Part shown: one piece after another, positions 1 to 25,637 of the stretch | How the letters are laid out: each line of letters starts with the position of its first letter | How positions within the stretch are numbered: position 1 is the first letter of the stretch | Source of the DNA: Acholeplasma sp. | Lineage (GTDB): Bacteria; Bacillota_I; Bacilli_A; Acholeplasmatales; UBA5453 | NCBI GenBank assembly: GCA_036677365.1 | Contig: JAVBWN010000010.1 | Coordinates: 1 to 25,827, forward strand | Direction of reading: 5' to 3' | Length of the DNA: 25,827 nt | Translations under genes and position numbers: made by a program | The notes under the pieces: generated by a model | The model's database searches: none | The model's input: only the letters and a program-made list of their open reading frames with translations | What the model was told of the DNA's origin: nothing

Positions 1-140
1 TATACATTTTATGACACTATTTAATTATATATAATTTTCACAATACGCGTATTTAATACCAAGTTTATAGTAGAATTATATAAAACTGATTGAAAGAACA
101 TTCGGAAAGCGAACAGTAAAAGATGAACTTTCCTAGTAAA
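1..140 (-). mobile_element. Putative mobile-element end module (box A 111-140, 79-bp spacer, box B 1-31), inverted homolog of 25482-25621; truncated by window edge
   Basis: Reverse complement of 111-140 (tttactaggaaagttcatcttttactgttc) matches 25482-25511 at 28/30. Reverse complement of 1-31 matches 25591-25621 at 26/31. The offset between boxes is 109 bp in both copies. Confidence 0.6.
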
Positions 141-141
141 C

Positions 142-170
142 AAAAAAATCACCTCCAAAAGGAGACGATT
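142..170 (-). terminator. Rho-independent terminator of the response regulator gene
   Basis: Minus strand reads aatcgtctcc-tttt-ggaggtgatt (10-bp stem with two G-U pairs) followed by a U-run, just after the stop at 182. Confidence 0.75.
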
Positions 171-181
171 CGAAGTTGTGA

Positions 182-865
182 TTATTCTTTAAATTGATAA
201 CCAATGCCCCAAATGGTTTGAATGATTTCAGGGTTGGTAGAATCTTTTTCGATTTTGTTACGAATGCGTTTCATGTGCACGTTGATGACATTTTCATCGT
301 CATAGTAGGGCTCATTCCATACCGCCTCATAGAGTTCTTTTTTAGTAACAATCTTGTTTGGATGGTTAAAAAAGAGTTCAAGAATTTTCGCTTCTTTTTT
401 GGTGAGTGGTATCTCTAAACCATGGTTATAAAACATGTAATTATATAAATGAAATTCCAAGTCACCGATGGTTTTAATTTGTTTGTGATCAACATTGGTC
501 ATACGGTAACGTCTGATTGCGGCGTGGATTCTCGCGATGAATTCTAACATTGAAAATGGTTTGGCAAGGTAATCATCCGCACCTAGAGTCAGCATTTCTG
601 CTTTATCGACATCGGTGTTTTTCGCTGAGATGACCAATATGGGCGTATTCGCACTTTTACGAATGGCTTCAATGATGGACTTACCTTCGATATCGGGTAA
701 AATCAGATCCAATACGACCAAATCAACCGATGATTTTTCAAATTGAAACATCGCTTGTGCCCCATCATATGCTGACAAAACTGTGAAATTTTCTTTTTTT
801 AAAGCCTCTAATAAGATTTTGTGGACTGTTTTGTTATCCTCTACCAAAAGAATTTGTGCGCTCAT
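182..865 (-). CDS. OmpR/PhoB-family DNA-binding response regulator (227 aa)
   Basis: Receiver motifs ILLVED, LVVLDLILPD, ISAK and DDYLAKPF; winged-helix C-terminus TIWGIGY. Start moved to ATG 865, which follows an AGGAGGT RBS. Confidence 0.93.
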   Translation of the reverse strand: MSAQILLVEDNKTVHKILLEALKKENFTVLSAYDGAQAMFQFEKSSVDLVVLDLILPDIEGKSIIEAIRKSANTPILVISAKNTDVDKAEMLTLGADDYLAKPFSMLEFIARIHAAIRRYRMTNVDHKQIKTIGDLEFHLYNYMFYNHGLEIPLTKKEAKILELFFNHPNKIVTKKELYEAVWNEPYYDDENVINVHMKRIRNKIEKDSTNPEIIQTIWGIGYQFKE

Positions 866-959
866 AAACGACCTCCTAATTCTTACATTTATAATATCAC
901 AATTAAATCTTAATACGAGCCAGGACATTAAAATGTAATATTTTTATAATATTTGAGGA

Positions 960-3900
960 TCAATCTCGATAGAAATCCACCGACACCAAATGATCATACA
1001 CCGCTTTGAGTTCGATCAATAGCTGATGGACATTTTCTTGAATTAAGTCCGTCAACCCTTGTTTATATAACCTCATGATGTCTTGACAACGTTTCGCTGC
1101 TTTTTCAGCGAAAATATAATTGGTAGAACCTTTGAGATAATGGGCTGTTTTTTCAATCGTAACATAATCATCTTTGATCAGTGCTTGTCTTAACTTATCG
1201 GCTTGTTCCTGATAATCTTCTGCAAATGTTTTTAAGATTTCATAAATCAAAGCTGCATCCCCATCATAAGCGTCAAACAGCGTTTTTTTATTGATTTCAC
1301 ATAAATCCGTTTTTTGTTCATTTTTCTTAAGGTGATCTTCAAACACAGATTTCATCATCTCAAGCAACAATTCCGGCTTGAATGGTTTGGTGATTGACCG
1401 ATTCATACCATAAGCCAGTGCTTTTTCATTGGCTGCTTCTGTGGCGTTCGCCGTGACCGCGATGATCGGAATATCATGGAATGTTCCACCGAGGGATCTA
1501 ATTTTTAAGGCAGCTTCATAACCATCCATTTCAGGCATTTGGATATCCATTAAAATGATGTCGAGACTCATCAGTTTGGCCCTTTCAATGGCTTCCATAC
1601 CAGAGGAGGCAAGTATCACATCTAAGCCTGCTTTCGACAAGATGACTTGCATCGCTTGGCGGTTGACTTTATTATCATCCACCACAAGTGCCTTTTTATG
1701 TTTTAATATAGATTGGTCCATGTGGACTTTAATTGGGGGTTTTTGTTCTTTGGCGTGAAGCAAATGTCGAACACGTTCCCTGGTGGTTGGCATCGTTAAG
1801 ACATAATCAACCGACTTTTCTACTAAGTCGTGTTTACTGTGAGTGGCCGCATCTATAGAACATAAAACGATTTTTGTATGGCGGTCGCCGAGTTTTTTAA
1901 TCCACTCGAAAACCTCATCTGCTTCAAGTTCTTCCATATTTCTTTGAATGATGATGAAATCATACTTACGACTACTGTCTTGGTTTGTTGCATATATATC
2001 CACATGGGGTGACATCGATTCAAAAAAGCGTTTCGCCATTTGAGCCTGTTCGATGTTTGAATTGACAATGACAAATCGCTTGTCTTGTAACGCGTGATTT
2101 TGGTTAGGCTTATGACGAACGCCCAAGGTAAATGTCATGGTGAAACCAAAGGTAGACCCTTTACCCAGTTCAGAATCAATCTCGAGTTCACTGTGAAAAA
2201 GGTCTAATAGGCTTTTAACAATCGATAAGCCCAACCCTGTACCAGGGTATTTTTTGGTTAAGGATGAATCCACTTGGAAAAATTGGTCTGTAATTTTTGA
2301 AATCACTTTTCTTGGAATACCAATCCCCGTATCGACCACTTCGATTTTAATGGTCATGGTATGGTCATCTTGTTGAATTTTCTTGGTTCGGAGGATGACT
2401 GTACCTTTTTCTGTGTATTTAATCGCATTCGAGACCAAATTCAGCATGATTTGTCGAAAACGGGTCCGGTCGGTGATGATCTCATCAACAATGTCATAAT
2501 CAAACTCGAATAGAATGCGCAATCCTTTTTCAATTGCGACATATTCTTGCATCTTAATGATTTGATAGAGTTCATTCTCCAAATCAAACGAACTCATCTC
2601 TAGTTCAAGTTTACCTGCTTCAATTTTGGCTAAATCCAAAATATTATTGACGATACGGCTTAAACTTTCCACCGAGGCTTTCGCGATTTCTAAATAATCG
2701 GATTGTTCAGGCGTCAGTTCTGTATTTTTTAATAAATACATCGCATTCGTGATGCCTGAGAGTGGGGTTCTAATTTCATGGCTCATGTTGGCTAAAAATT
2801 CACCTTTTGCTTCCGATGCACGTAATGCATTTTGCTTTTCTTGAACCAACATATTTTGTTGTGTTTGCTTGACTTTAAGGTTGACAATCAATTCTGCCAA
2901 GACCTTCAGAAGTTTTTGTTCATCGACTGTCCATTTTGCATAGTCTTTGACCGCGTCAAATCCGACAAAACCATAGATTTTTTCATCGTCATATAGTGGG
3001 ATTGTTAATAAAGATTTGATGTCTTGCATCTTCAAGACACGGTAAAGTTCGGAGTCGTGATTCATTTGTTCGATGTCGGGAATATAGACGGATTCTCGTT
3101 TTAGGTGGTTATCCATCCAAAATGCATCGATCATTTCAATCGGTTGATTTTGCAACAAATCAATGACTGGGTCAATCCCTTCATTACAATATTCATGGGT
3201 ATTGTTGGTGATTCCACGTTCAAAATCATAGTCAAATACATACACACGGTCCGCATGGATGTGTTTACCTACCATCCCTAAACCTTTAGATATCGCTTCA
3301 TTGGCTTGTTCCACGGGTACGTTAATGAATACGGAAGCGATTTGAATGAGAATGTCTTGGAAATCATAACTGCGTTTCAATTCATTTTCGATTTTTTTGA
3401 TATCGGTAATGTTTTTATTGATGGTGATGATGCCTTCGATTTGGTCACCATCAGATACAGGGATACGTGTACTTTCAACGGTTAAAAACCCTTGTTCTGA
3501 TAATATTTCAATGACAGAGGTTTGAGGGGTTTGTAACTCGTAAACTTTGTTATCCATTTCGGTTATTCGTTTAACTTCTGTACTTGGGTAGACTTCGCTG
3601 ACGTGTTTATGGATCAATGTGTCTAAGTGTGGCCAACGTTCAATGGCTTTTTTATTGGCGTAACGATAGACTTGCTTTTTATCTTTGTATGCAATCATAT
3701 CGGGTGAATGGTCGAGGATCAACGTCAAAAACTTGACATATTGTCGATAACTGACCGTCTTCCAAGTGGTTTCAAGCAAATATCGATCAATATTGGTTAA
3801 ATGCGGCAGTGGTCCATCAACGATCAAATAACTGTCATTCGATAGTTCAATGATATGGTAAGGGGCAACATAGGTTTGATGCGTATGGATGGCTTGAAAT

Positions 3901-4079
3901 ATGCCGGTCACATCAGACACATTTTCAGGGTAACAAAACGGTTTATTGTAGCGAATACCGTAAAAGTGTAACGCATGACATTGAAAGAAAGACCTCAACT
4001 GTTCGACATAGGTATAGGAATCTGCCTTGGTCGAAATCAATGTTTTCAATAATTTTAGTAACGCATCTGTGGCTTGCAT
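960..4079 (-). CDS. Cytoplasmic hybrid sensor histidine kinase (PAS-GAF-HisKA-HATPase-degenerate REC-REC-HPt), about 1039 aa
   Basis: H-box FLANMSHEIRTPL; N/G boxes NLVSNAIKYT, DTGIGI and GTGLGL; receiver LVVDDN..ILMDIQMPEMDG..KP; HPt-like AHYLKGS. PAS-like and GAF-like segments lie N-terminal. Start placed at the ATG after an AGGTGA RBS. Confidence 0.92.
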   Translation of the reverse strand: MQATDALLKLLKTLISTKADSYTYVEQLRSFFQCHALHFYGIRYNKPFCYPENVSDVTGIFQAIHTHQTYVAPYHIIELSNDSYLIVDGPLPHLTNIDRYLLETTWKTVSYRQYVKFLTLILDHSPDMIAYKDKKQVYRYANKKAIERWPHLDTLIHKHVSEVYPSTEVKRITEMDNKVYELQTPQTSVIEILSEQGFLTVESTRIPVSDGDQIEGIITINKNITDIKKIENELKRSYDFQDILIQIASVFINVPVEQANEAISKGLGMVGKHIHADRVYVFDYDFERGITNNTHEYCNEGIDPVIDLLQNQPIEMIDAFWMDNHLKRESVYIPDIEQMNHDSELYRVLKMQDIKSLLTIPLYDDEKIYGFVGFDAVKDYAKWTVDEQKLLKVLAELIVNLKVKQTQQNMLVQEKQNALRASEAKGEFLANMSHEIRTPLSGITNAMYLLKNTELTPEQSDYLEIAKASVESLSRIVNNILDLAKIEAGKLELEMSSFDLENELYQIIKMQEYVAIEKGLRILFEFDYDIVDEIITDRTRFRQIMLNLVSNAIKYTEKGTVILRTKKIQQDDHTMTIKIEVVDTGIGIPRKVISKITDQFFQVDSSLTKKYPGTGLGLSIVKSLLDLFHSELEIDSELGKGSTFGFTMTFTLGVRHKPNQNHALQDKRFVIVNSNIEQAQMAKRFFESMSPHVDIYATNQDSSRKYDFIIIQRNMEELEADEVFEWIKKLGDRHTKIVLCSIDAATHSKHDLVEKSVDYVLTMPTTRERVRHLLHAKEQKPPIKVHMDQSILKHKKALVVDDNKVNRQAMQVILSKAGLDVILASSGMEAIERAKLMSLDIILMDIQMPEMDGYEAALKIRSLGGTFHDIPIIAVTANATEAANEKALAYGMNRSITKPFKPELLLEMMKSVFEDHLKKNEQKTDLCEINKKTLFDAYDGDAALIYEILKTFAEDYQEQADKLRQALIKDDYVTIEKTAHYLKGSTNYIFAEKAAKRCQDIMRLYKQGLTDLIQENVHQLLIELKAVYDHLVSVDFYRD

Positions 4080-4171
4080 TGGAATCACCTGCTTAGGTCT
4101 ATTTTATCAAACGATGCGCCTAAATCTAACAATTATATTAATAATCATGTTGAAATTAATTCTAATTTAAG

Positions 4172-4203
4172 AAAAAGCAGGCCTCACGCGGAGATGCCTG
4201 CTT
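4172..4203 (-). terminator. Terminator overlapping the plsC 3' end
   Basis: aagcaggc...gcctgctt inverted repeat followed by ttttt on the minus strand. Confidence 0.65.
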
Positions 4204-5020
4204 GTTTTTGTCCGTTCTTTACGGGTGTTTTTTCTTTGATGGTTTGGTTAACCAACTTCATGACATGGTCAGCCAAATCGGTGGTACTCATGGCTTCATA
4301 GGTTTCTTTATATATCGGTTCATGGATGATCACTTTAATCTTCGTCGTGCGCCAAGGGGCACGGTATTTTACATCTGTGGTTCCAATCAGGGTAATCGGA
4401 ACAATCGGTGCTTCGGCTTTGGTAGCTAATTTATAAGCCCCAGCACGCATCGCGACCATTTGCTCATCGTTACGGTCTTTGATTCCACCTTCAGGGAAAA
4501 TCGCCATAATCATCCCATTTTTGATTTGTTCGATGCCTTTTAGAATGGATTTTGCGGCTTCACGGTTGTTTTCACGATCGATTTGAATACAACCAAACCA
4601 AGGCATGTAATTGCGGATGACAGGCAGTTTATAGATGCCTTTTTTTGCAGCCATGCCCGCTGGACGGTCTAACAATTGATATAAGATAAATGGGTCAGCA
4701 TACGATTTATGGTTGGCATACATCACAAAACTACCTGAGGTAGGTAGTAATTCTTTACCCTCTACGGTCAATTGAAGACGCAAAGCAAAAATCGAAACAA
4801 ATTTCGCAATACTTCTGATGTAGTAGTGTTTGAATCGATTATCTACTTTCGTGAATTTCATATAAGGCATCATCGCTACCAAGAGTAAGACCATCGATAG
4901 CCAAGCCAAGCCATACCCAACAATCAACCAAATTGGAATCATCCAAAGTTCTGAGGAAGTCAATCCGAAAAAGAAGCCAGCACTCAAAAACCAAATGATG
5001 ATAAATAACGTTGTAATCAT
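4184..5020 (-). CDS. plsC: 1-acyl-sn-glycerol-3-phosphate acyltransferase (PlsC family)
   Basis: NHKSYADP (HX4D) and FPEGG motifs, with two N-terminal hydrophobic helices. Confidence 0.85.
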   Translation of the reverse strand: MITTLFIIIWFLSAGFFFGLTSSELWMIPIWLIVGYGLAWLSMVLLLVAMMPYMKFTKVDNRFKHYYIRSIAKFVSIFALRLQLTVEGKELLPTSGSFVMYANHKSYADPFILYQLLDRPAGMAAKKGIYKLPVIRNYMPWFGCIQIDRENNREAAKSILKGIEQIKNGMIMAIFPEGGIKDRNDEQMVAMRAGAYKLATKAEAPIVPITLIGTTDVKYRAPWRTTKIKVIIHEPIYKETYEAMSTTDLADHVMKLVNQTIKEKTPVKNGQKQAGISA

Positions 5021-5490
5021 ACAATCACCTTTTCATAAACACAAAACCGTAGCACATCTTCTTTATCTTCTTGGATTAAGCGGTATTGTGATAAATCAAA
5101 CTGCGGGAAATAGACATTGCCTTCATGGGACTTGTCAATAAATGTGATGTAGAGTTGGTCAGCGTATGGCAAGCTTAAACGGTATATGGTTTTGCCACCA
5201 ATCACAAACAACTCATCAGAATAATTTTTTAGAAATGCATCGATGTCGGTGACTTTAATGGCGTCCTCAAAGACACGGTCTGAGATGGATGCGATGTACA
5301 ATTGACCAAAAGGAAGCGGTTTGTCTTTGTAATAGGATTTCAATGAATCGTAGGTCATGTCGCCCATCAAGACAGGTTTTCCTTTGGTTTTTTCTTTAAA
5401 GTAAGCCAAATCTTTTTTGTAATGCCATGGCAATTGGTTGTCTTTTCCAATCAACCAATTTTGATCCATCGCCCAAATGAGTTTAATCAT
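5017..5490 (-). CDS. folA: Dihydrofolate reductase
   Basis: [18 protein letters not shown] and YFP DHFR motifs; overlaps the thyA stop. Confidence 0.93.
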
Positions 5491-6353
5491 ACAGCCACAA
5501 CCCCTTTGATGGCAGGGTATGGGTTATAGTCTACAAGTTCGAAATCTTCAAATTTGAAATCCGTTATGTTTTTCACATTGGGGTTGATTTTCATTTTTGG
5601 CAAAGCACGTGGTGTGCGTGTCAATTGTAAGTTGATTTGGTCAAAATGATTGGAATAAATGTGGGCATCCCCAATGGTATGGACAAATGTACTTGGTTTC
5701 AAGCCAGTGACTTGCGCAACCATCATTAAAAATAAACTGTACGAAGCAATGTTGAATGGAATCCCTAAAAAGATATCCCCACTACGTTGATACAGTTGTA
5801 GCGACAGCTCACCCTGATTGACATAGAATTGCATAAACGTATGACACGGTGGTAAAGCCATCTCTGGTAAATCTTTCGGATTCCATGCTGAAAGGATGAT
5901 TCGTCTAGAGTCAGGGTTATGCTTGATTTGACGAATCACTTCCATCAACTGGTCTACCCCGTTAAAATTGCGCCATTGTGCCCCATAAACAGGACCGAGG
6001 TTGCCATGTTTTTGTGCAAAAGCATCGTCAGTCTTGATTTTTTGGACAAACTCATCCATGGTTTCATTTTGATATTCCGATGATTTTTTAAACTTTTCAT
6101 AAGGCCATTCATTCCAAATGCGTACATCATTGTCGACCAAGTATTTGATGTTGGTATCGCCCGCGATGAACCACAACAATTCATGGATGATGGCGCGTAA
6201 ATACACTTTTTTAGTGGTTAATAAAGGGAAACCTTCGGATAGATCAAAGCGCATTTGATAACCAAATACACTTTTGGTGCCTGTGTTTGTGCGGTCAGCT
6301 TTTTCGGTGCCATGCGTCATCACATGACGACATAGATCGAGGTATTGTTTCAT
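5487..6353 (-). CDS. thyA: Thymidylate synthase
   Basis: [15 protein letters not shown], catalytic [20 protein letters not shown] and DAHIY. Confidence 0.97.
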
Positions 6354-7729
6354 TATTTTGCCAATTGGTACAAGGCATCGGCGTAAATCGCGATGCTCAT
6401 GAAGAAATCATCCAAAATGATGTATTCATCCTTTTGGTGAATGTAGCTAGGCTTGTTAGGGAAGTGCGGACCGAACGCAACAGAGTTTTTCATGGTTCTT
6501 GCGAATGTACCACCACCGGTAGTCAGTGGCTTCGCTTCGTGATCGTTAGAATACTTCTTATAGGCAGTCATGAGGGTTTGAATCATTTCAGATTTAGGGT
6601 CAACATACAACAATCTTTGGTGTTTCCCCAATACAACTTTCAATCCAAGGGATTCAAATGCGGTTTCGAATCGTTTGATGAATCTTTCTGGATCAACACC
6701 GTTTGGATAACGTGGGTTCAAAGTAATTTCAAAGAGATTGTTTTCAAGTTTAAATACCCCAGCATTGACGGTGACTGGACCCATTTCTTTATCGAGATAG
6801 TCCACACCAATCTTCACGCCTTTGGTATCATCGAGTAAATACGTATTGATGGCATCCACAAACGCATTATTGATGCCTACTTCATTGAAGAAATGAACCA
6901 TCAAATAGGCAGCGTTCACACCTTCATCCGGTGTCGAACCGTGGGCACTCTTACCATCGACTTCCAGCACCAAGCCTTGTTCCGATAAGCTTGCTTTACC
7001 GACTAATTTTTTATGTTTAAGAAAGTCTTCAAACTTGGATTTTAATGATACATCAGAAACCACTGCCAATGCGTGGTCTGGCACCATATTATCACGTAAA
7101 CCCGCATCAAAACGAATCAATTTGGATGGCTCGATTTTGCCTTTAACAACGACTTTTAGGATCCCTTTTTCACCGTAAGTGAGTGGGAATTCGGAATCTG
7201 GGATGAAACCTGCCACGGGTTGTTCAGGGTATTGTTTGAAATAATATTGCACACAACGCCATGCGGTTTCTTCATCGGTGCCAAGGATCAATTTGATGCG
7301 TTTGGATAGAGGCATGCCCAGGTCTTTCAATATTTTCATGGCATAATAGGCTGCCAACGTAGGGCCTTTGTCATCTTCTGTACCGCGACCATACATCTTG
7401 CCATCGGCAATCACTGCACCGTAAGGTGGGTAAGACCAGCCTGAACCCGCTGGTACGACGTCTAAATGTCCAACCATACCGACATAGGCATCTTGATTGC
7501 CATATTCGATGTGGCCTGCATAATGGTCCGCATTGAGGGTGTTAAATCCATCGCGTTTGCCTAAGTTTAACATGAATGTGAGGGCAGCATCGATGCCTTC
7601 ACCAAACGGTGCATGTTTACGATTTGGGTCAAATGTGGTTAATTCAGAATTAATTTGAATGAGCTCTGTGAGGTCTTTCAAAATAGCCGCTTTGCGCTTT
7701 GTCACTTCTTCAACAAAATTAATGTTCAT
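6353..7729 (-). CDS. pepV: M20 family dipeptidase PepV (458 aa)
   Basis: [22 protein letters not shown] and GGGTFAR. Start moved to ATG 7729 after an AAGGAG RBS. Confidence 0.88.
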
Positions 7730-7748
7730 AATATCAACTCCTTTTTTA

Positions 7749-7777
7749 ATTATACCAACAAACCCCCACTTACACAA
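7749..7777 (-). promoter_or_regulatory. Sigma70/A promoter for pepV-thyA-folA-plsC
   Basis: TTGTGT-17 bp-TATAAT, with an extended -10 (TGgTATAAT) on the minus strand. Confidence 0.55.
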
Positions 7778-7804
7778 TCGATTTAAAATGGAAAAAGACC
7801 CTTT

Positions 7805-8161
7805 TCAGGCGTCTTCTTCAGGACATGATGGGCTTGATTTAAATGTACTGGAAAGGTGTATTACCCTTTCACCGACGAGTTCAATGACTGAAATGACTTT
7901 ATTGTTGGCCAGTTCGAGTTTTTTGGTTTGAAGCCTGCCGCGGATTGCAACCATAGACCCTTTCTTACAATAATTTTCAATGATTTCAGCTGAACCTTGC
8001 CATAGACTACAACCGATGAAATCTGTTTCGTATAAACCTTCCATATTCTTAAATGCGCGTTGAACCGCAATTTGAATATCCGATACTTTTTTGCCATCTT
8101 CGGTGGTTTTGACGATTGGGTCATGGGTGAGTCTTCCGATCAAAGTAACTTGATTGAGCAT
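7805..8161 (-). CDS. ssb: Single-stranded DNA-binding protein, short form (118 aa)
   Basis: MLNQVTLIGRLTHDP, ETDFI and KGSMVAIRGRLQT OB-fold motifs; AGGAGG RBS. Confidence 0.9.
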   Translation of the reverse strand: MLNQVTLIGRLTHDPIVKTTEDGKKVSDIQIAVQRAFKNMEGLYETDFIGCSLWQGSAEIIENYCKKGSMVAIRGRLQTKKLELANNKVISVIELVGERVIHLSSTFKSSPSCPEEDA

Positions 8162-8256
8162 TGTTTACCTCCTTGTCTTTGATTATACTTAAAATGTTTA
8201 GTTTACCTAATCGCAGAATTGATACACATAATACGATATTGAGCCTAATTATATAC

Positions 8257-8284
8257 AAAAAAAGGAAATCCAATTTGGATTTCC
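8257..8284 (-). terminator. Rho-independent terminator after ymfH
   Basis: ggaaatcca-N3-tggatttcc hairpin followed by a 7-U run on the minus strand. Confidence 0.8.
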
Positions 8285-8313
8285 ATTTAATCGTGTTTTA
8301 ATTTATATTTTTA

Positions 8314-17050: not shown

Positions 17051-17051
17051 G

Positions 17052-17759: not shown

Positions 17760-18090
17760 CGATGAATTGTTTCAACGTGCCATCTTTAAACTCTTGTTGA
17801 CGCGCAAATAGAAATACTTTCTTATTGATTTGGATGATTTCACCTTCGATGGCGAATACCACACCAGACAAAAAGGCCATGATTTTGTTGGCTGGGTCTG
17901 GTTGTAACTCTTCAAAATTAAGTACCAATGGGTTGCCATCGATGAGTTCGGTAGCCAGTGAAGTGATGTATACATCATCATCGGTGGATAACGATTCAAA
18001 AATGATTCGATCGAATGCCGATGAGAGTGTTTCACCTTGATAATTAGGTAAGACATTTTCTGTTTTTTTGGTTTTACTAAATATTGCCAT
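17743..18090 (-). CDS. sepF: Cell division protein SepF
   Basis: GNPLVLNFE..ANKIMAFLSGVVFAIEGEIIQI..KVFLF; located between yggS and ylmH. Confidence 0.85.
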   Translation of the reverse strand: MAIFSKTKKTENVLPNYQGETLSSAFDRIIFESLSTDDDVYITSLATELIDGNPLVLNFEELQPDPANKIMAFLSGVVFAIEGEIIQINKKVFLFARQQEFKDGTLKQFIDEYKD

Positions 18091-18098
18091 AGATTACC

Positions 18099-18722
18099 TC
18101 ACAGGATGAATTTTCGACCGATTCGAACAAAATCGGTGCCGATGGATAAGGCCAATTCATAATCGTTGGTCATCCCCATTGAAACAAAAGGCAGATGGTA
18201 ATGGATTTTTAAAGCTTTCAGCGTTTGGAATACGGCTTTGGTAGCCTCGATGTCTTGATCGACACCCATCCCCATCAAACCAACTATCTTTATTTTATCA
18301 TAATTTGTCAGTTCTTTTAAGAAATCGTCTAAATCTTCGCGCTTGAGTCCCGTTTTATTGGGTTCGTTGGCTAAATTCAATTCGATGAAACAAGGCAATG
18401 GTTTGTTTCGATACTTTTGGATTTCTTTAGCCAATTTGATTGAATCTAAACTGTGTAAATAGTCGATTTCATTGATGAGTTTTTTCACTTTGTTGGTTTG
18501 GAGGTGGCCAATGAAGTGCCATAGGATATCTAAATCGGTCAGTGCTGCTTTTTTATCTAACAATACTTGCGCATGATTTTCACCGAAGTGACGGATACCT
18601 GCGTGATAAATTTCTTTCATCTCGAGCGCATTTACATATTTAGATGCACAAATCACTTGGACATTCGGATGTTGTTGAACCGATGCCAAAATGGTCTGCG
18701 TATTGTCCGTTAAATTAGACAT
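18099..18722 (-). CDS. yggS: YggS family PLP homeostasis protein (207 aa)
   Basis: FGEN, WHFIGHLQTNKVK, GLM, SMGMTNDY and VRIG. Likely start ATG 18722, overlapping the ychF end. Confidence 0.92.
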   Translation of the reverse strand: MSNLTDNTQTILASVQQHPNVQVICASKYVNALEMKEIYHAGIRHFGENHAQVLLDKKAALTDLDILWHFIGHLQTNKVKKLINEIDYLHSLDSIKLAKEIQKYRNKPLPCFIELNLANEPNKTGLKREDLDDFLKELTNYDKIKIVGLMGMGVDQDIEATKAVFQTLKALKIHYHLPFVSMGMTNDYELALSIGTDFVRIGRKFIL

Positions 18723-19815
18723 TGAATTTAAACAACATGACATCCCCGTCTTTGACAAGATAATCTTTACCTTCTTGTCTCACACGGCCAGCTTCTTTCG
18801 CAGCTAAATAAGATCCATGCTTGATTAAATCGTCATAGGCCACGGTTTCAGCTCGAATAAAACCGCGTTCGAAATCGCTGTGGATGATACCGGCACATTG
18901 GGGTGCAGTCATACCTCTTTTGAAAGTCCATGCTCTGGCTTCCATTGGACCCGCGGTGAAATAGGTTTCTAAGCCTAAGCGGTGGTATGTGGTACGAATC
19001 AATTGATCCAACCCTGCTTCATGTAAGCCGAGTTCAGCCATGAACATGGCTTTTTCTTCATCGTCGAGTTGGGCGAGTTCAGATTCAATTTGTGCCGATA
19101 TGTGAACCACATCGGCGGATTCATTTTTGCCTTTTTCAACCAATCTCAAATAGACTGGGTTATTTTCAATCGTTTTGATTTCAGATTCAGACACATTCGC
19201 GATGTAAATCATCGCTTTGGCAGAAAGGAAATTATAGCTCTTGATGATGGCTTTTTCACTGTCGGTTAAATCCATCAAGCGGATGGGCATATTGTCTTCT
19301 AATGCTTGTTTGATTTTGCTTAAGACTTCAAATTCTTCTTTTTCCTCAGGGTTTCCTGCGGTTTTCGCTTTCTTTTCAATCTTTGGAATGCGTTTCATGA
19401 CGGTATCATAATCGGCAATATTCAATTCAAGTTGAATGATATCGATGTCACGAAGTGGATCGACAGAACCTTCGACGTGAATGATGTTGTCATCTTTAAA
19501 GAGACGTACCACTTGACAAATGGTGTCTACATCTCGGATGTGGCTTAAAAATTGGTTCCCAAGACCTTCGCCTTTGGACGCCCCTTTGACCAATCCTGCG
19601 ATGTCGATGAACTCGACTGTGGTTGGGACAATTCTGCCAGATTTGTACATGGTTGCCAGTACATCTAAACGTTTATCCTTTAAGGTAACCACACCCACGT
19701 TGGGGTCGATGGTTGCGAAAGGATAGTTGGCTGCGAGTGCAGCACTTTTGGTGATTGCATTGAATAATGTGGATTTACCAACATTGGGTAATCCCACGAT
19801 ACCTGCTCTTAACAT
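18715..19815 (-). CDS. ychF: Redox-regulated ribosome-binding ATPase YchF
   Basis: GIVGLPNVGKSTLFNA, NYPFATIDPN, DIAGLVKGASKGEGLGNQFL and IHSDFERGFIRAE. Confidence 0.97.
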   Translation of the reverse strand: MLRAGIVGLPNVGKSTLFNAITKSAALAANYPFATIDPNVGVVTLKDKRLDVLATMYKSGRIVPTTVEFIDIAGLVKGASKGEGLGNQFLSHIRDVDTICQVVRLFKDDNIIHVEGSVDPLRDIDIIQLELNIADYDTVMKRIPKIEKKAKTAGNPEEKEEFEVLSKIKQALEDNMPIRLMDLTDSEKAIIKSYNFLSAKAMIYIANVSESEIKTIENNPVYLRLVEKGKNESADVVHISAQIESELAQLDDEEKAMFMAELGLHEAGLDQLIRTTYHRLGLETYFTAGPMEARAWTFKRGMTAPQCAGIIHSDFERGFIRAETVAYDDLIKHGSYLAAKEAGRVRQEGKDYLVKDGDVMLFKFNV

Positions 19816-19834
19816 AATAAATACTCCTTCATCA

Positions 19835-19859
19835 AAAAAGGCGCCATGGCCCCTTTTTC
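19835..19859 (-). terminator. Possible weak terminator between ftsZ and ychF
   Basis: aaaaagggcc-at-ggcgcctttttt imperfect hairpin with a U-run. Confidence 0.4.
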
Positions 19860-19860
19860 G

Positions 19861-20988
19861 TTATTTTTTACTTTGTAGCCATGATGGCAATTTATTGGAT
19901 TTTTTCTCTTCTTTTGGTGCTTCTACCACTGGGGCTTGTTTTTCAAATCCCGATGGGGTGAGTTTGACTTGGTCATTGGTGGTCTTTTTAAAGATTTGGG
20001 TTGCAAAATCATCAATCGTAGACTCTTTGGCTTTGAGTTCATAGCCGGTAGCAATCACAGTGACAATCATTTCATCTTTCAAATCTTCATTCAAGGCTGT
20101 ACCGTAAATGACGTTGAGTTCAAAATCTGTGGCATTTCTAATCTCATCTAAAGCTTGTGAAACTTCAAATAGGGTAATGTTGGTGCCTGAGGTGATGTTG
20201 ACAATCGCATCGGTAGCACCGTCAATCGACACTTCTAATAATTTCGAGTGGATCGCTTTACGTGCTGCTTCAATGGCTCTATTTTCACCGGCAGCAATCC
20301 CAATACCCATGAGTGCCGTCCCTTTGTTTTCCATGACTGTTCGGACGTCAGCGAAGTCCACGTTGATTAGACCAGGTACTGCGATGATTTCAGCAATCCC
20401 TTGGACCCCTTGTCTTAAAACGTTGTCTGCTTCTCTAAATGCATCGAGCATTTGGGTATTCGGTTCGATGATTGATAACAAACGTTCATTTGGAATCACG
20501 ATGAGTGTGTCCACGAATTGCTTTAATTCTTCTAACCCTGCAATGGCTGCTTGGGTTCGTGCTGGACCTTCAAAGGCGAATGGTTTGGTAACAATACCAA
20601 TCGTCAAGCAGCCCATTTCTTTTGCCAATCGGGCAATGATTGGCGCTGCACCGGTTCCAGTACCGCCACCCATGCCGGCAGTAATAAACACCATATCGGC
20701 ATCGCTCAATACGGCTCTTATTTCATCCTCGGATTCCAACGCGGCACGTTTGCCTACTTCAGGCTTTGCACCAGCACCCAACCCTCTGGTTAAATGTTTT
20801 CCAATTTGTAGTCTTTTCTCAGCGCGAGATACTCTCAACACTTGGGCATCGGTATTCACTGCTACGAATTCTACACCTTTTACATCGTTCTCAATCATGC
20901 GATTGACGGCGTTCCCGCCACCACCACCAACACCGATAACTTTAATGACCGGCTTTTGGTTGAAGTTGTCATTTTCGCCAAATACCAT
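19861..20988 (-). CDS. ftsZ: Cell division protein FtsZ
   Basis: [17 protein letters not shown], tubulin signature GGGTGTG and INVDFADV. Confidence 0.98.
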
Positions 20989-21082
20989 AATACCCCTCCT
21001 AAAAATTTGTTGTAAACAACCTAAGTTAATTTTACACTAATTGGCTTATAATTAAAAGATATATAAGCGATTTTAACACAAG

Positions 21083-22192
21083 TCACTTCAAATAGCCATA
21101 ACGCGTAAAAAATTCTTTTTTAAAGTCTAATAAGCGGTCTTCTAATATCGCTTGTCGAATCTCTTTCATCAAATGTTTTAAAAACGCCAGGTTTTGATAG
21201 GTCATGATGCGCATCCCTAAAATTTCTTCTGCTTTGAATAAATGACGAATATAGCTTTTTGTATACTTCGAGAATGGGGTTTGCAGATTGGGGTCTAATG
21301 GGGTCATATCCATCTCAAACTGCTTATTTCGGATTTGGATTTTTCCCATGGTCGTAAAAGCGGTACCGTGTCTGGCGTTACGTGTTGGTAGGACGCAATC
21401 GAACATATCCACCCCACGAATCACACCCTCAACCAAATCGTCTGGTGACCCAACACCCATCAAATAACGGGGTTTATCCTTTGGCATGACTGGGTTTAAT
21501 AAATCCAGAATGCGATACATTTCCGATTTCGATTCCCCAACCGATAATCCCCCAATGGAATACCCTGGGAAATCCATTTCAATCAATCTTTTCGCGCTTT
21601 CTAAACGCAAGTCATCATATAAGCCACCTTGAACAATACCAAACAGTGCTTGGTCTGTTTTGAGTGCTTTTTTGCCGCGTTCAGCCCATCTTAAGGTGCG
21701 CTCAAGGGAGTCTTTGGTATACGCATAACTGGCGTCATGTGGTGGACACTCATCAAAACTCATGATGATGTCAGCCCCTAGTTTTTCTTGTATTTCGATG
21801 GCTTTTTCAGGTGATAAGAAGAGCGATTCTCCACTCTTGTGGTGTTTAAAATACACCCCTTCTTCTTTGATTTTTCGCATATCGGTGAGTGAAAATACTT
21901 GAAATCCACCACTGTCGGTTAATAAAGCGCCATCCCAGTGCATGAACCCGCGGATCCCACCATGGGCTTTCACGATATCTTCCCCTGGTTGTAACCACAA
22001 ATGATAGGTATTGCCTAAAATCAATCCATCCGAGGCGGCCTTGATTTCTTCAGGTGTCAATGTTTTGACGGTCGCTAGGGTGCCTACCGGCATAAAAATG
22101 GGCGTTTCAAACGTCCCATGGGGTGTATGGAGTAATCCGTATCTTGCGCCGGATTGTTTACATGTATGTAATAGTTCAAATCTAATTGCCAT
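21083..22192 (-). CDS. tgt: tRNA-guanine(34) transglycosylase (369 aa)
   Basis: [38 protein letters not shown] and [10 protein letters not shown]. Start moved to ATG 22192 after AGAGGA. Confidence 0.97.
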
Positions 22193-22209
22193 ATTGATTC
22201 CTCTTTCCA

Positions 22210-22238
22210 TTGAAATTATACCACAGAAGTGTTATATT
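22210..22238 (+). promoter_or_regulatory. Sigma70/A promoter for riboswitch-queT
   Basis: TTGAAA (22210-22215), 17 bp, TATATT (22233-22238) with a TG extension. Confidence 0.6.
22215..22223 (-). promoter_or_regulatory. Extended -10 promoter for tgt
   Basis: TGgTATAAT on the minus strand, about 20 bp upstream of the start codon. Confidence 0.55.
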
Positions 22239-22255
22239 TGTTATTGGCTTATGCC

Positions 22256-22291
22256 CGCAGTACTAGTTACCTGCGAAACCAAAACAAGGAG
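22256..22291 (+). ncRNA. preQ1 class I riboswitch (translational type)
   Basis: CGCAG-UACUAGUUAC-CUGCG-AAACCAAAACAAG-GAG: 5-bp P1, 10-nt loop ending in the ligand-pairing C, and an A-rich tail running into the AAGGAG RBS of queT. The register matches the 33-nt T. tengcongensis aptamer as I recall it. Confidence 0.9.
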
Positions 22292-22302
22292 AATAACTGA
22301 AT

Positions 22303-22788
22303 ATGCTTCATTTTACCTTAAAAGATTGGATTCGACAATCTTTGATTGCAGCCCTTTACGTCGTATTGGTGCTTCTATTTTTACCCATCAGCTTCGGCGA
22401 AATTCAATTTCGCGTGGCTGAATTATTATTGATTGTTGTCTTTTTTGACAAGAAAGCCATCGTTGGATTGACCGTTGGTACATTTGTTGCAAACATGTAC
22501 AGTCCAGGTCCACAATTGCCATTTGACTTAACCCTAGGGGTTTTGGCCACCTTCTTGAGCGTGGTATCGATGGTGTGGATTAAAAACAAATATGTAGCAT
22601 TACTCGCACCCACCCTATTCAATGGCATCATTGTTGGATTCATCTTGAATGTCGTGTGGGGCTTACCTTTATGGTTAACCATGGGGTATGTCGCGATTGG
22701 TGAATTTGGTGTGACTTATATTGTCGGATTACCGATGTATAAAATACTCAATCGAAACCCAGGATTTAAATCACTTTTCGAAGAATAA
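22303..22788 (+). CDS. queT: QueT family queuosine-precursor transporter
   Basis: IAALYVVL..PISFGEIQFRVAELL, multiple TM helices, preQ1 riboswitch upstream, divergent from tgt. Confidence 0.9.
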   Translation: MLHFTLKDWIRQSLIAALYVVLVLLFLPISFGEIQFRVAELLLIVVFFDKKAIVGLTVGTFVANMYSPGPQLPFDLTLGVLATFLSVVSMVWIKNKYVALLAPTLFNGIIVGFILNVVWGLPLWLTMGYVAIGEFGVTYIVGLPMYKILNRNPGFKSLFEE

Positions 22789-22810
22789 AGGCGCAGATTT
22801 TGCGCCTTTT
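22787..22810. terminator. Bidirectional terminator between convergent genes
   Basis: aaaggcgca-gattt-tgcgcctttt perfect stem. Confidence 0.8.
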
Positions 22811-22811
22811 C

Positions 22812-23153
22812 TTATCTAAAACCAAGGTTTCTCAATGTTTTTTCAACCAAACCTACAAAGTTGTTTTCAGCACCCCAGTTGAACTTAATGAGTACGCCTG
22901 TTGACCCACCCGTACTCACAGCATCCACGGTGATTCGATCATCGATTTGTGAAATCATGACCGATAAACTCGCACGGTTGCCTGCGCGATAATAATATTT
23001 TTCGAACACCATCATGCGAGACTGGCCATTTTCAAAGGTTGCTTTCACATCCAAACGACATTCACCTGTGATTGAACCATTGACCACTTCATTGTAAATT
23101 GCGCCACTTACTTGATCGATGGTACCGGTACCTACCATTCTTAAGCTAGACAT
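22812..23153 (-). CDS. Small conserved hypothetical protein, probably DUF6054 family
   Basis: VFEKYYYRAGNRASLSV..STGGS....NWGAENNF pattern (family call from recall); AAGGAG RBS; overlaps the mutY stop. Confidence 0.6.
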   Translation of the reverse strand: MSSLRMVGTGTIDQVSGAIYNEVVNGSITGECRLDVKATFENGQSRMMVFEKYYYRAGNRASLSVMISQIDDRITVDAVSTGGSTGVLIKFNWGAENNFVGLVEKTLRNLGFR

Positions 23154-24165
23154 TTATTTTCTCCTTTAAAATTATTTGTTTATGTGCTGTTGCCATAGCG
23201 ATATCCTCAAATGATTGCACTAAAGTATGTGCTTTAGCGGCTTGAATTTTGCCATAATAGACATCCATGTGCCAGATGAGATGGGTAAAGACATGTTTAT
23301 AATGACCCAGTGGTCGGGTGTAAAATACCTCCAACCCATCCGCAGACAATGCCTCAAGGGCATAAGCCAAATCCTCTGCTTCTACTTGAGGTAACAAATA
23401 GAGTCCTTTTAATAAGTTATCGGTGACTTTTTCAACGACAAATTTACCCGAGGTATCCACCAAAATAAACGTGATAAAATGATATTCTTTTTTGGTTTTT
23501 GCTTTGGCTTTAATCGGCAGTAAATATTGCAAGTCTTTGGCTTTTGCCAAGCAATGCGTAGAAACGGGACAAATGTCACATTTCGGTTGGTGTTTGGTAC
23601 AGAGGGTAGCCCCCAATTCGATGATGGCTTGTGTGTAAAGATGCGGTTTTTCATCATCCAGTAATGTATGATTTAATGCTGTGATCTCTTTTTTAGTTGC
23701 ATCGAGTGCGATGTCTGATTCTACTGCGAAATAACGCGACAGTACACGTAAAACATTGCCATCCACGGCACTTCTTTTTTGATGAAAAGCAATCGACAAA
23801 ATCGCCCCAGCTGTGTATTCGCCAATCCCTTTTAATTGAATCAGTTCTTCATAGGTATTGGGAAAAATACCTTGATGCTTCGACATAATCACTTTGGCTG
23901 TTGTTTGCATATTTCTCACACGAGAATAATAACCCAGTCCTTCCCAAAGTTTCATCAATAAGGCTTCATCACATGCCGCCAAATCCTGAATGGTGGGTAA
24001 TGTTTGTATGAATCTTTGATAATAGGGGATGACCGTTGCAGCTTGGGTTTGCTGTAACATGATTTCAGATACCCAGATATAATACGGGTCTTCGGTATGT
24101 CGCCATGGTAAATCACGAGCGCTTTTTTCATACCAAGCGATGAGTTTACTTGAAAAATGACTCAT
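23146..24165 (-). CDS. mutY: A/G-specific adenine glycosylase MutY (about 339 aa)
   Basis: RDLPWR, WVSEIMLQQT, WEGLGYYSR, HhH LKGIGEYTAGAI, VDGNV, 4Fe-4S motif C-X6-C-X2-C-X5-C and HVFTH. Confidence 0.95.
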   Translation of the reverse strand: MSHFSSKLIAWYEKSARDLPWRHTEDPYYIWVSEIMLQQTQAATVIPYYQRFIQTLPTIQDLAACDEALLMKLWEGLGYYSRVRNMQTTAKVIMSKHQGIFPNTYEELIQLKGIGEYTAGAILSIAFHQKRSAVDGNVLRVLSRYFAVESDIALDATKKEITALNHTLLDDEKPHLYTQAIIELGATLCTKHQPKCDICPVSTHCLAKAKDLQYLLPIKAKAKTKKEYHFITFILVDTSGKFVVEKVTDNLLKGLYLLPQVEAEDLAYALEALSADGLEVFYTRPLGHYKHVFTHLIWHMDVYYGKIQAAKAHTLVQSFEDIAMATAHKQIILKEKINV

Positions 24166-24685
24166 CGATGTCTCGGATTCTGATGCCACAATGTGGAATC
24201 ATGTCATCGATATTGGTAAATGTGCCCATGACAATGCCATGGCATACAACGATGACTTTTTTATATTTTAAATAAGGTTTGATGGCATTGTGCGTACGTT
24301 TCGATAACACCTCAAACGATTCCCAAGGAAACTCAGTTTGATCGCTTCTTATACCCCTTTGAGCCATAAATTCTGGGTAGGCTAAATCCAAGTCTTTACG
24401 GTCACCAAACGTGGTATCTGGCATCCATTCGTGCAAATCGTTTTCGACAGTTAACGGAATTTGTGTGATACGTGAAATGATGGCTGCGGTTTGTAAAGCC
24501 CGTGTATAAGGCGATGCCACAATCAATTCAGCATCTTGTAAAATGGCTTCTTTAGCAACCATTTCTGCTTGTGATACGCCACGATCTGTCAGTTTGCCTA
24601 AATCATAACCTTGATTCTTGTAACCACGTGCGATCACTTCATCGTAACGCGGTTCCCCATGTCTAATAAAAATAAATGTTGTCAT
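24146..24685 (-). CDS. Histidine phosphatase family protein (179 aa)
   Basis: FIRHGE, LT..G..QA, SPYTRALQTA and VVCHG. Start at the ATG after AGGTGA. Confidence 0.9.
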   Translation of the reverse strand: MTTFIFIRHGEPRYDEVIARGYKNQGYDLGKLTDRGVSQAEMVAKEAILQDAELIVASPYTRALQTAAIISRITQIPLTVENDLHEWMPDTTFGDRKDLDLAYPEFMAQRGIRSDQTEFPWESFEVLSKRTHNAIKPYLKYKKVIVVCHGIVMGTFTNIDDMIPHCGIRIRDIDESFFK

Positions 24686-24702
24686 TTTAATCACCTATCC
24701 CA

Positions 24703-24711
24703 AGTATAACA
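24703..24711 (-). promoter_or_regulatory. Extended -10 promoter for the phosphatase-mutY operon
   Basis: TGtTATACT on the minus strand upstream of the RBS. Confidence 0.45.
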
Positions 24712-24772
24712 TAATTTCATGTGTCGATAAATAAACATTTTAGGTCATATTTATCGGATGTATAGCATCGTA

Positions 24773-24781
24773 TGTTATAAT
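24773..24781 (+). promoter_or_regulatory. Extended -10 promoter for the nitroreductase
   Basis: TGtTATAAT, 9 bp before a GAGGAAG RBS. Confidence 0.55.
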
Positions 24782-24804
24782 TGGACTGTGAGGAAGTGAG
24801 GCTG

Positions 24805-25422
24805 ATGAACCCTATGAATAACCAATTTGATGATATAATACTCAATCGAAGATCCATTCGTAAATACCAACCCTTCGACTTATCCAAAGAAACGATTGAA
24901 GCGATTCTTACCATGGCTTTGCGTGCACCGTCATCCAGAAACTTTCAACCATGGACGATTCGTGTGATCCATTCGTTGGAGGCTAAGGCAAAGTATTCTC
25001 ATTTATTCGTTTCGAATCGAAATCAATACGAGACGGCTTCAGCGATGATCATCCTGTTTGCCGATACCCGTTATGCCAGTCGAGCAAAGGAAATATATGA
25101 ACGCGCCATCGAACAAGGTCTCATGACCCCTGAAGCCAAAGAAAAACAGTTGTTGAATATCCAAAATCAACAGACCAATCCTGTTGATGTCATCAAAACT
25201 GCCCATTTAAATACCGGACTTTTAGCGATGGGTATTATGCTGTCTGCAAGACATTTCGGCTTGGATACTTGCCCCATTGCCGGTTTCGATAAAACAAATG
25301 CCCCTGCAGCATTCAATTTAGAGCACCATGAAGCGATTCTAGCAATATCGATTGGTAAAGCGCTTGATCCTGGTTATGCTTCTGTAAGACTGCCTTTAAA
25401 AGATGTCTTAAGTATTGAATAA
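24805..25422 (+). CDS. Nitroreductase family protein (about 205 aa)
   Basis: RRSIRKY, APSSRNFQPW, GLDTCPIAGFD, ISIGK and terminal RLP. Start is 24805 or 24814. Confidence 0.92.
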   Translation: MNPMNNQFDDIILNRRSIRKYQPFDLSKETIEAILTMALRAPSSRNFQPWTIRVIHSLEAKAKYSHLFVSNRNQYETASAMIILFADTRYASRAKEIYERAIEQGLMTPEAKEKQLLNIQNQQTNPVDVIKTAHLNTGLLAMGIMLSARHFGLDTCPIAGFDKTNAPAAFNLEHHEAILAISIGKALDPGYASVRLPLKDVLSIE

Positions 25423-25437
25423 ATCGAATTTTATATT

Positions 25438-25480
25438 AAAAAGATGCTCGTGGTTTTTAACCAACGAACATCTTTTTTTT
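25438..25480 (+). terminator. Rho-independent terminator of the nitroreductase
   Basis: aaaaagatg-c-tcgt-ggtt...aacc-a-acga-a-catcttttt hairpin with an 8-T run. Confidence 0.8.
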
Positions 25481-25637
25481 ATTTACTAGGAAAGTTCGTC
25501 TTTTATTGTTCAATCATCTAACAATCATTTAAGCTTTTTGATAGAAATATCCATAAAACACCCATTAATATGCCTTCTTTTATGACTTTCTATATAATTA
25601 AATATTCATATAAAATATATATTTTATGAGTTATTTA

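Follow-up and report, generated by a model that had tools for sequence, protein, structure and literature searches.

The DNA analysed here (the window, 25,827 nt) carries the same two-part non-coding module, inverted, at both ends of a 25-kb gene block, and the question that it raises is what joins the module to the block. An earlier note had proposed three options: (a) the outward-facing left ends of two diverged IS1341-like elements, (b) the long terminal inverted repeats (TIRs) of a single element, and (c) inversion sites or the scaffold of a variable cassette. The analysis favours the first. The two modules are read as the left ends of two separate copies of a tnpB-only insertion sequence, inside which the assembly was broken; we put the probability of this reading at roughly 0.93.

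Repeat structure and assembly layout

Match counts were made on the gap-free mapping of position x to 25622-x, and recounting returned the figures of the note for each part: 26/31 for box B, 36/79 for the middle segment (V) and 28/30 for box A (coordinates in Table 1). The value for V is above chance, as composition predicts 24.3 matches and only 0.2% of 20,000 shuffles reach 36. A repeat finder returned the same similarity as arm I1 (63-148/25474-25559, 71% identity) and arm I3 (1-34/25588-25621, 82% identity). The match runs on across positions 141-148 (7/8), which are the T-run of two host terminators and lie outside the element. On the right, a tnpB ATG at 25673 follows the module end at 25621 by 52 nt, in agreement with the earlier reading.

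The window is the entire contig C10, and positions 1 and 25827 are its ends. The source genome, of a host in the Acholeplasmataceae, is a draft in 37 contigs with 74 contig ends. It contains 12 left-end (LE) and 14 right-end (RE) copies of the element, all 26 of them at most about 1.1 kb from a contig end, and 26 of the 74 contig ends consist of this one tnpB-only element. Because the element has about 12-14 copies, the assembler stopped inside the two copies on C10; since the copies all lie near contig ends, the presence of the module at both ends of the block is a consequence of assembly, and the apparent tie between module and block comes from contigs that end within repeats. Contig C15 has the same outward LE/LE layout, and contig C27 an RE/RE layout. 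In reads (X1), word depth summed over positions 1-150 was 535-1450, compared with 36.2 in the flank, a sum that is not a copy number.

Table 1 Features of the window
Feature	Position	Strand	Evidence or remark
Left copy, first 140 nt of LE, cut by contig end	1..140	-	96% identity to C29 and 95% to C15 over 147 nt
Left copy, subdivisions	box A 111-140, V 32-110, box B 1-31	-	
Host intrinsic terminator of response-regulator gene	141..171	-	11 pairs, -8.1 kcal/mol
OmpR-type response regulator, upstream of left copy, co-oriented	182..928	-	Pfam Response_reg and Trans_reg_C
Nitroreductase-family protein, upstream of right copy, co-oriented	24781..25422	+	Pfam Nitroreductase, 83.7 bits
Host terminator-like hairpin (to 25472), T8 (25473-25480) and A (25481), target of right copy	25441..25481	+	Inverted repeat I19, -10.4 kcal/mol
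Box A, first 30 nt of element, left terminus	25482..25511	+	Mean pairwise identity 0.92
V, 79-nt fast-diverging LE segment	25512..25590	+	Mean pairwise identity 0.58
Box B, A+T-rich conserved block	25591..25621	+	Mean pairwise identity 0.87
Extended -10 (TG 25638-25639, TATAAT 25641-25646) and RBS AAAGGAGG (25656-25663) of tnpB	25638..25663	+	Read from sequence
tnpB, 5' part, 51 codons, cut by contig end	25673..25827	+	Same N-terminus on C15: Pfam HTH_OrfB_IS605, OrfB_IS605

Architecture of the element

The module is the approximately 190-nt LE of a tnpB-only insertion sequence with the architecture of the IS200/IS605 family, IS1341 type. No copy in the source genome is assembled end to end; the element's length of approximately 1.55 kb comes from a relative with two complete copies, which measure 1537 and 1539 nt between TAGG and the end of the RE. 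Two TnpB fragments from the source genome match Pfam OrfB_IS605, HTH_OrfB_IS605 and Cas12f1-like_TNB. The full-length TnpB of the relative (423 aa) scores 134.9 bits with NCBIfam guided_TnpB (cut-off 100) and lies far below the cut-off of NF038281 IS200_TnpB (27.3 versus 425). Inspection of this protein by eye revealed the RuvC-type motifs GIDFG, NEAYTSK and NADQNA, which by analogy with ISDra2 TnpB may contain the catalytic residues, and no cysteines in the TNB region. A sequence search of TnpB against solved structures in the PDB gave no match at E <= 0.01, and an Rfam search gave no family match for the element.

The RE comprises a conserved hairpin with compensatory stem changes among nine relatives, followed by a terminal TTTGTTC. 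For these nine, consensus folding of the terminal 150 nt predicts stems within the 3' end of tnpB in addition to the terminal hairpin.

The LE was compared in 27 copies from seven genomes. The copies on C29 and C15, 96% and 95% identical to window positions 1-147, run on to the tnpB ATG, which they reach 52-53 nt beyond the point corresponding to position 1. The expectation of a minus-strand tnpB about 52 bp past the left edge is borne out in these homologues; the tnpB of the left copy itself is outside view because the contig ends 52 nt short of the expected ATG. Of 10 genomes in the genus, eight contain matches to a box A pattern, 43 in all (among them 111-135 on the minus strand, in the left copy); a reversed control pattern gave none, and neither did the box A pattern in 12 genomes from three other genera in the family. 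Its core motif, TARGAAAKT, is kept in 11 distant relatives, and box A is presumed to be a cis site for transposition.

V is the variable part of the LE, with a minimum pairwise identity of 0.40 and gaps in only 3 of its 79 columns over the 27 copies. It has no conserved ORF: no frame is consistently open, and 1-nt indels occur. Consensus folding of the 27 LEs, on both strands and with RNA and DNA parameters, detected no conserved hairpin (0 to -0.7 kcal/mol), and duplex energies of V with tnpB mRNA or the RE in two full copies were no better than those of shuffles (z from -0.5 to +1.2). The length of V is conserved within the genus only. The selection on geometry that the earlier note had suggested agrees with the genus, where TAGG and the ATG are 184-187 nt apart in 27/27 copies, but does not extend to the 11 distant relatives, where the distance from LE to ATG is 92-412 nt. 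The copy on C19 is a recombinant, in which V matches that of the right C10 copy (76/78) and box B and the promoter match C29 (31/32 and 48/51); V thus appears, from these alignments, to have been recombined between co-resident copies.

Box B lies at about -62 to -32 from the putative transcription start and probably forms the UP-element/-35 zone of the tnpB promoter; the distant relatives do not conserve it. Most of the 27 genus copies retain TGGTATAAT, as do several distant relatives. The tnpB promoter was absent from the sites listed by a consensus promoter scan, owing to its weak -35.

A possible 4-bp mini-stem in the LE, seen by eye only, reads AAAG..CTTT, as opposed to AAAT..ATTT in distant relatives. 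It was rejected as a shortened homologue of the RE hairpin, as the RE stems covary among relatives and the LE motif is constant. Pairing of box A with the V/box B border (pair I13) was likewise set aside, being present only in some LE types.

Empty sites and alternative readings of the block

Both C10 sites are empty in the same-genus genome G004, and the left site is also empty in X8, a near-identical strain in which an 86,341-nt contig crosses it with four differences over 139-1500. The boxes are missing from these empty alleles, which the note had proposed to look for together with the genome-wide copies counted above. The X8 contig leaves the window at position 139; its 30 unaligned letters equal the reverse complement of the sequence that comes after the RE on C27. 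On C22, the DNA beyond the RE is homologous to that behind the right terminator in G004. When window positions from 141 onward and the C27 flank are compared with X8, the left copy shows no target duplication beyond a shared 2-nt TT ambiguity. For the right copy, the junction at its right end departs from the empty site of G004 by approximately 5 nt, in a stretch with a local identity of only 78%. The two copies are simple insertions that arose independently.

These sites also weigh on the other readings. The paired modules might be recombination sites that invert the 25-kb block, or the scaffold of a programmable variable cassette that has its own function. Two inverted copies of about 1.5 kb could in principle recombine, their visible tnpB parts being 89-96% identical over up to approximately 350 nt, and V is highly variable yet constant in length. 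However, the order C27-C10-C22 is that of the relatives' empty sites: the outer flanks are the same as in G004 and X8, and no inversion is recorded. The LE/LE and RE/RE layouts of C15 and C27 are what randomly oriented copies predict, V shows no conserved fold, ORF or complementarity to the element, and spacer length is free in distant relatives. We regard this reading as very unlikely.

A single element or composite transposon of about 25 kb, carrying the housekeeping block and tnpB between long imperfect TIRs, would account for the inverted orientation and the gap-free register at the two window ends. It is extremely improbable, as each end belongs to a separate insertion of approximately 1.55 kb with its own RE and flank (C27 on the left, C22 on the right), and the block stays in place where the sites are empty. 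The block contains core genes (among them IleRS, FtsZ, SepF, Tgt, ThyA, DHFR and SSB), and in both G009 and G006 a single contig carries its two flank genes, approximately 25 kb apart. Of 96 inverted pairs in a complete copy of the element, none of the 25 longest forms a TIR. The idea that the boxes are host regulatory sites beside terminators, outside any mobile element, fits their intergenic position directly after terminators and has a negligible probability given their absence from orthologous empty sites, the tnpB at a fixed distance after them in all 27 copies with sequence, and a copy number ranging from 0 to 12 across genomes of the genus.

Insertion target

With the modules read as ends of separate insertions, the sequence that precedes each of them is the target. 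At the left site, the stem-loop extends from 171 to 146 and shares positions with a T7 run and G (148 to 141), with the element directly 3'; G004 and X8 have this hairpin and T-run at their empty sites. The right hairpin and T-run are present in G004, where unrelated DNA follows; a simple terminator scan did not list this terminator, which was read from the sequence and its fold energy instead.

Across the genus, 37 of 43 copies parse as a T-run (at least four T), then A, G or CA, then the element. By eye, the six others comprise two with an interrupted T-run, three with a duplicated LE start after the T-run and one without a T-run. The distant copies follow the same parse in 11/11 cases, directly after a terminator hairpin and T-run. 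Hairpins of -5 kcal/mol or lower precede 78% of the 37 copies, compared with 27% of 908 background T5-9-R-TT sites and 46% of the 218 intergenic ones, a comparison in which copies from related genomes are not independent, some of them being orthologous. The choice of T-runs together with selection explains part of the preference for terminators, but probably not all of it. No description of terminator-adjacent insertion by tnpB-only elements was found in the literature, though one may already be in print.

Search for a transposase

No Y1 or serine transposase was detected within 1.5 kb upstream of tnpB at 20 loci, in a scan of 29 of the 67 stop-to-stop frames of at least 70 aa, the longer ones being picked by eye. 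The 190-nt LE fills the interval from host terminator to tnpB in 27/27 measured copies. The genome has a single Y1 tnpA, in a second IS family whose ends are unrelated and which shows no preference for T-runs. Mobilization in trans by this co-resident IS605-type family is not supported, as ends and flanks are unrelated. In G009 and G007, which are 99% complete and hold six and four copies of the element, no Y1_Tnp match exceeded the cut-off. With regard to an IS607-type serine transposase, resolvase matches fall mostly in frames of 440-590 aa. No cognate transposase for the tnpB-only family was found.

Comparison with known systems

Members of the IS200/IS605 family insert 3' of a particular tetra- or pentanucleotide, and a Y1 (HUH) TnpA binds subterminal hairpins at their two ends. 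The architecture and mobility of IS1341-type elements are described in PMC10691335. The present element resembles them in carrying one gene, a tnpB of the RNA-guided TnpB family, without tnpA, in the absence of TIRs and of any target duplication beyond the 2-nt ambiguity, in insertion 3' of a short specific sequence and in its many copies per genome. It differs in its target, a T-run and purine directly after a terminator hairpin, and in the absence of a Y1 transposase with matching ends. PMC7290912 describes the ends of IS200/IS605 elements as requiring a hairpin; in the present element, no conserved LE hairpin was found on either strand.

The IS605-type elements IS608 and ISDra2, which carry tnpA and tnpB, are the paradigms for peel-and-paste transposition and TnpB homing. 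In a TnpB-omega RNA (OMEGA) system, the scaffold of the guide RNA spans the tnpB 3' end and the RE, and the flank supplies the guide. In common with IS608 and ISDra2, the left side of the element abuts a short target motif (a candidate transposon-adjacent motif of TnpB), predicted RNA structure extends over the tnpB 3' end into the RE, and TnpB has RuvC-type motifs by eye. The element differs from them in its lack of tnpA, in a 190-nt LE in which no hairpin was found and in a TNB region in which no cysteines were seen.

Two other systems are tied to terminators. Bacterial group IIC introns settle at intrinsic terminators and, like the present element, occupy a fixed place relative to the hairpin and T/A-run, with unrelated enzymes and ends. 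The left end of IS200 carries a terminator hairpin that belongs to the element, and in both cases a terminator separates outside transcription from the element's own gene. The present hairpin, in contrast, varies among copies and remains where the element is absent, and therefore belongs to the host.

Proposed mechanism and implications

In the proposed explanation, two copies with different LE variants flank C10, both pointing outward. Each would have inserted without target duplication, directly 3' of the T-run (with A or G) that ends the intrinsic terminator of a co-oriented gene. Box A would be the left terminus, retained since transposition requires it, and box B, the extended -10 and the RBS would drive expression of tnpB. 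The 79 nt between the boxes would be under little sequence constraint and be shuffled among co-resident copies by recombination. A transposase would act in trans, and TnpB with a guide RNA derived from the RE would cleave donor sites again once they are emptied, with the T-run serving as its adjacent motif.

A bolder extension is that a tnpB-only clade of the Acholeplasmatales and Izemoplasmatales actively recognizes intrinsic terminators (hairpin and T-tract), with the T-tract doubling as the TnpB adjacent motif, the 79-nt segment serving as a spacing element and mobilization depending on machinery other than a resident Y1 or IS607-type transposase. The last part is entertained because no LE hairpin was found and the family has spread in genomes in which no such enzyme was detected. 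The extension as a whole seems to us speculative and on balance unlikely.

The main value of the finding is the correction of how the contig ends are read: where a window is an entire contig and an inverted module stands at each of its ends, the first suspicion should be a repeat that breaks the assembly. For the element itself, the family supplies many natural pairs of filled and empty sites for a tnpB-only element. With its T-rich terminator target, a compact TnpB of 423 aa that lacks a zinc finger, and no transposase found so far, it represents a reasonable system for the study of IS1341-type mobility and TnpB recognition.

Left ends of a tnpB-only element at both window edges

The inverted module at the two edges of the window represents two outward-facing copies of the left end (LE) of a tnpB-only element of approximately 1.55 kb. 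Each copy comprises box B, a variable middle segment (V) and box A. Recounting of the gap-free mapping of position x to 25622-x reproduced the hand counts of the earlier note for both boxes and V, and the tnpB ATG lies 52 nt past position 25621, as had been claimed. The same inverted arms were returned by a repeat finder, and the likeness of the two V segments is weak but real (24.3 matches expected from composition; 36 reached in 0.2% of 20,000 shuffles).

Location of features, matches between the two window copies and mean pairwise identity of left-end segments across 27 genus copies; right-copy positions follow from x to 25622-x
Feature	Location	Length	Matches, left versus right copy	Mean pairwise identity
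Box A	window 111-140	30 nt	28/30	0.92
V	window 32-110	79 nt	36/79	0.58 (minimum 0.40)
Box B	window 1-31	32 nt in alignment	26/31	0.87
Promoter/RBS		51 nt		0.78
First part of tnpB		60 nt		0.88
Extended -10, TG-n-TATAAT (right copy)	window 25638-25646			
Divergence of run X4 contig	window 149-159			
Outward-facing LEs, contig C15	109 (-), 78768 (+)			
Right ends, contig C27	110 (+), 92110 (-)			
Second IS family	C7:26973-28092; ends of C3, C5, C6, C8, C9, C12, C14, C16, C20, C23, C24, C28, C33, C34, C36			
Tandem target motif	L011:1280-1312			
TnpB of 423 aa	L009:1501-2769			
Decayed tnpB	L034:1501-1647			
Long left end	L019:1083-1494	412 nt		

BLAST with both window ends as query located the module 12 times in the genome (G000), and the right-end (RE) counterpart occurs 14 times. 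None of the 26 element ends is more than about 1.1 kb away from where a contig terminates, and together they make up 26 of the 74 contig ends of this 37-contig, 1.97-Mb draft, in which the window spans all of contig C10. Like the window, contig C15 has an outward-facing LE of this element at each extremity, and contig C27 has an RE at each. The assembler stopped in the repeat, the 25-kb block is the DNA between two copies, and the tie of the module to that block is an assembly effect. Among the explanations offered earlier, left ends of two tnpB-only elements is the correct one, as the copies on contigs C29 and C15 (sharing 96% and 95% identity with window positions 1-147) both continue into a tnpB ATG. 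The proposal that the arms are terminal inverted repeats of one large element is unsupported. Among the 25 longest of 96 inverted pairs in a full copy, none links the two termini.

The element and its TnpB

Two protein fragments from G000 match the Pfam families OrfB_IS605, HTH_OrfB_IS605 and Cas12f1-like_TNB. In a same-genus relative, the distance between TAGG and the RE end of full copies is 1537 and 1539 nt; these copies encode a protein of 423 aa, which scores 134.9 bits with the NCBIfam model guided_TnpB, above its cut-off of 100. The nearest loci in named records belong to Paracholeplasma vituli (protein identity about 90%), followed by other Acholeplasmataceae and Izemoplasmatales. No solved structure was matched by sequence to the 423-aa TnpB of locus L009; its TNB (zinc-finger) region contains zero cysteines, although Cas12f1-like_TNB still matches a G000 fragment. 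The Tenericutes bacterium MO-XQ genome holds one decayed copy (L034), in which the tnpB frame ends after 48 codons, and one intact copy of 422 aa (L017).

The RE terminus is a hairpin followed by TTTGTTC, with compensatory stem changes across nine relatives, and additional stems are present inside the tnpB 3' end of these nine. Together these would fit an omega-RNA scaffold; Rfam returned no match.

No transposase gene was detected upstream of tnpB at 20 loci (29 of 67 frames scanned), where the genes are assorted host genes. The sole Y1 tnpA in G000 belongs to a second, unrelated repeat family of IS605 type with different ends, 12 left and 12 right, mostly at contig ends. In this family tnpA (141 bits) is kept only in the C7 copy, next to a different tnpB, and the left end forms a clear hairpin. 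Genomes G009 (6 copies) and G007 (4 copies), both 99% complete, gave no Y1_Tnp match above the cut-off, and G008 possesses six tnpA genes and zero box A copies. Resolvase-domain matches fall mostly in frames of 440-590 aa.

Filled and empty insertion sites

Comparison of filled and empty sites indicates that both window copies are insertions. Neither orthologous site is filled in G004, a genome of the same genus, where the terminator hairpin and T-run give way to unrelated DNA. A much closer comparison is available for the left site, where a contig of 86,341 nt from sequencing run X8 shows 4 differences over 139-1500 and parts from the window sequence at position 139. Read on the opposite strand, the 30 unaligned letters of that contig give the sequence that comes after the RE at the C27 start, so that the left flank and the C27 flank sum to the empty site. 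This insertion involved no duplication and no loss, a shared TT alone being unassignable. Contigs of runs X1 and X5 cross from the flank into the element up to about position 91-94, and the left site is therefore occupied there. For the right copy, the C22-start flank after the RE is homologous to post-terminator DNA in G004, with a junction difference of ~5 nt.

The far flanks are thus the C27 start for the left copy and the C22 start for the right copy. The order C27-C10-C22 is the ancestral order, hence no inversion is recorded, and the earlier suggestion of inversion sites or a cassette scaffold finds no support. Separately, a 16.8-kb contig from run X4 agrees with the window from position 159 to the right, and to the left it continues as unrelated sequence; the X4 strain therefore has another junction beside the response-regulator terminator, either another insertion or a rearrangement.

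Target

All 12 G000 copies are preceded by 5-8 T and then A, G or CA, usually straight after a hairpin. Among the 37 parsable of 43 genus copies, which include orthologous, non-independent ones, a hairpin of -5 kcal/mol or lower is present in 78% and of -7 kcal/mol or lower in 65%. The corresponding values are 27% and 15% for all T5-9-R-TT sites in G000 (n=908), and 46% and 32% for the intergenic ones (n=218). In distant relatives, a hairpin (-4.6 to -16.9 kcal/mol), a T-run and A precede 11 of 11 copies, whereas the second IS family in G000 has no T-run or terminator flanks. Taken together, these data lend good support to a target of T-run plus purine. The element may recognise the hairpin itself, or terminators may simply be places that tolerate such T-runs. 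The L011 copy, from a record of Acholeplasmataceae UBA6190, has a tandem pair of TTTTTCA target motifs immediately in front of its left terminus.

Anatomy of the left end

The LE alignment comprises 27 copies from seven genomes of the genus, all with a locatable ATG; outside it are 15 copies whose contig ended before the ATG and one with 300 nt available in which the ATG pattern was unmatched. V has gaps in just 3 of 79 columns, falls into about six sequence types recurring across species, and is constant in length within the genus despite ~50% divergence. No conserved fold, conserved ORF or complementarity to the remainder of the element was found in V.

The contrast between boxes and middle, which in the earlier note suggested selection on geometry, is mosaicism: two old LE lineages adjoin tnpB parts that are 92-96% alike. 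On sequence comparison the C19 copy is a recombinant, its V equalling that of the right window copy at 76/78 positions and its box B (31/32) and promoter (48/51) equalling those of C29. The length claim holds within the genus, where TAGG-to-ATG spacing is 184-187 nt in 27/27 copies, and fails beyond it. Eleven distant relatives keep the terminal motif TTWAH-TARGAAAKT with 92, 93, 123-128, 193, 203, 291 or 412 nt from LE to ATG, so length is no family-wide constraint.

Besides its extended -10, the right copy carries AAAGGAGG 9 nt ahead of the ATG. Counted from the start that this -10 predicts, box B spans roughly -62 to -32 and would act as the UP/-35 region of the promoter of tnpB; this promoter was absent from the calls of a consensus promoter scan.

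Two left-end variants were observed. In L062 (G009:C1), L092 and L091 (G005:C16 and C5), about 14 additional A/T-rich nt separate the initial ~10 nt (TTTACTAGGA) from the usual TAGGAAAG. This arrangement, which recurs in two genomes, has the look of a terminus that was partly duplicated. In L019, a distant copy (Candidatus Izemoplasma sp. B36), the stretch between left terminus and tnpB contains an ORF of 82 aa that is preceded by a separate TGGTATAAT-like promoter and gave no match in Pfam; it may be a passenger gene within the left end.

Relation to known elements

The architecture is that of the tnpB-only IS1341 type of IS200/IS605, as outlined in PMC10691335, and the element belongs to this known kind. 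Of the IS200/IS605 traits given in PMC7290912, the element shows the lack of inverted repeats and of duplications as well as insertion 3' of a short motif; of the hairpins described for the two ends, it has one at the RE, and none was found in the LE. Terminator-adjacent insertion of tnpB-only elements was not encountered in the literature searched and may still be published. Two side questions follow: terminators as landing sites of an element for which no transposase was found, and a left-end segment of variable sequence and fixed length.
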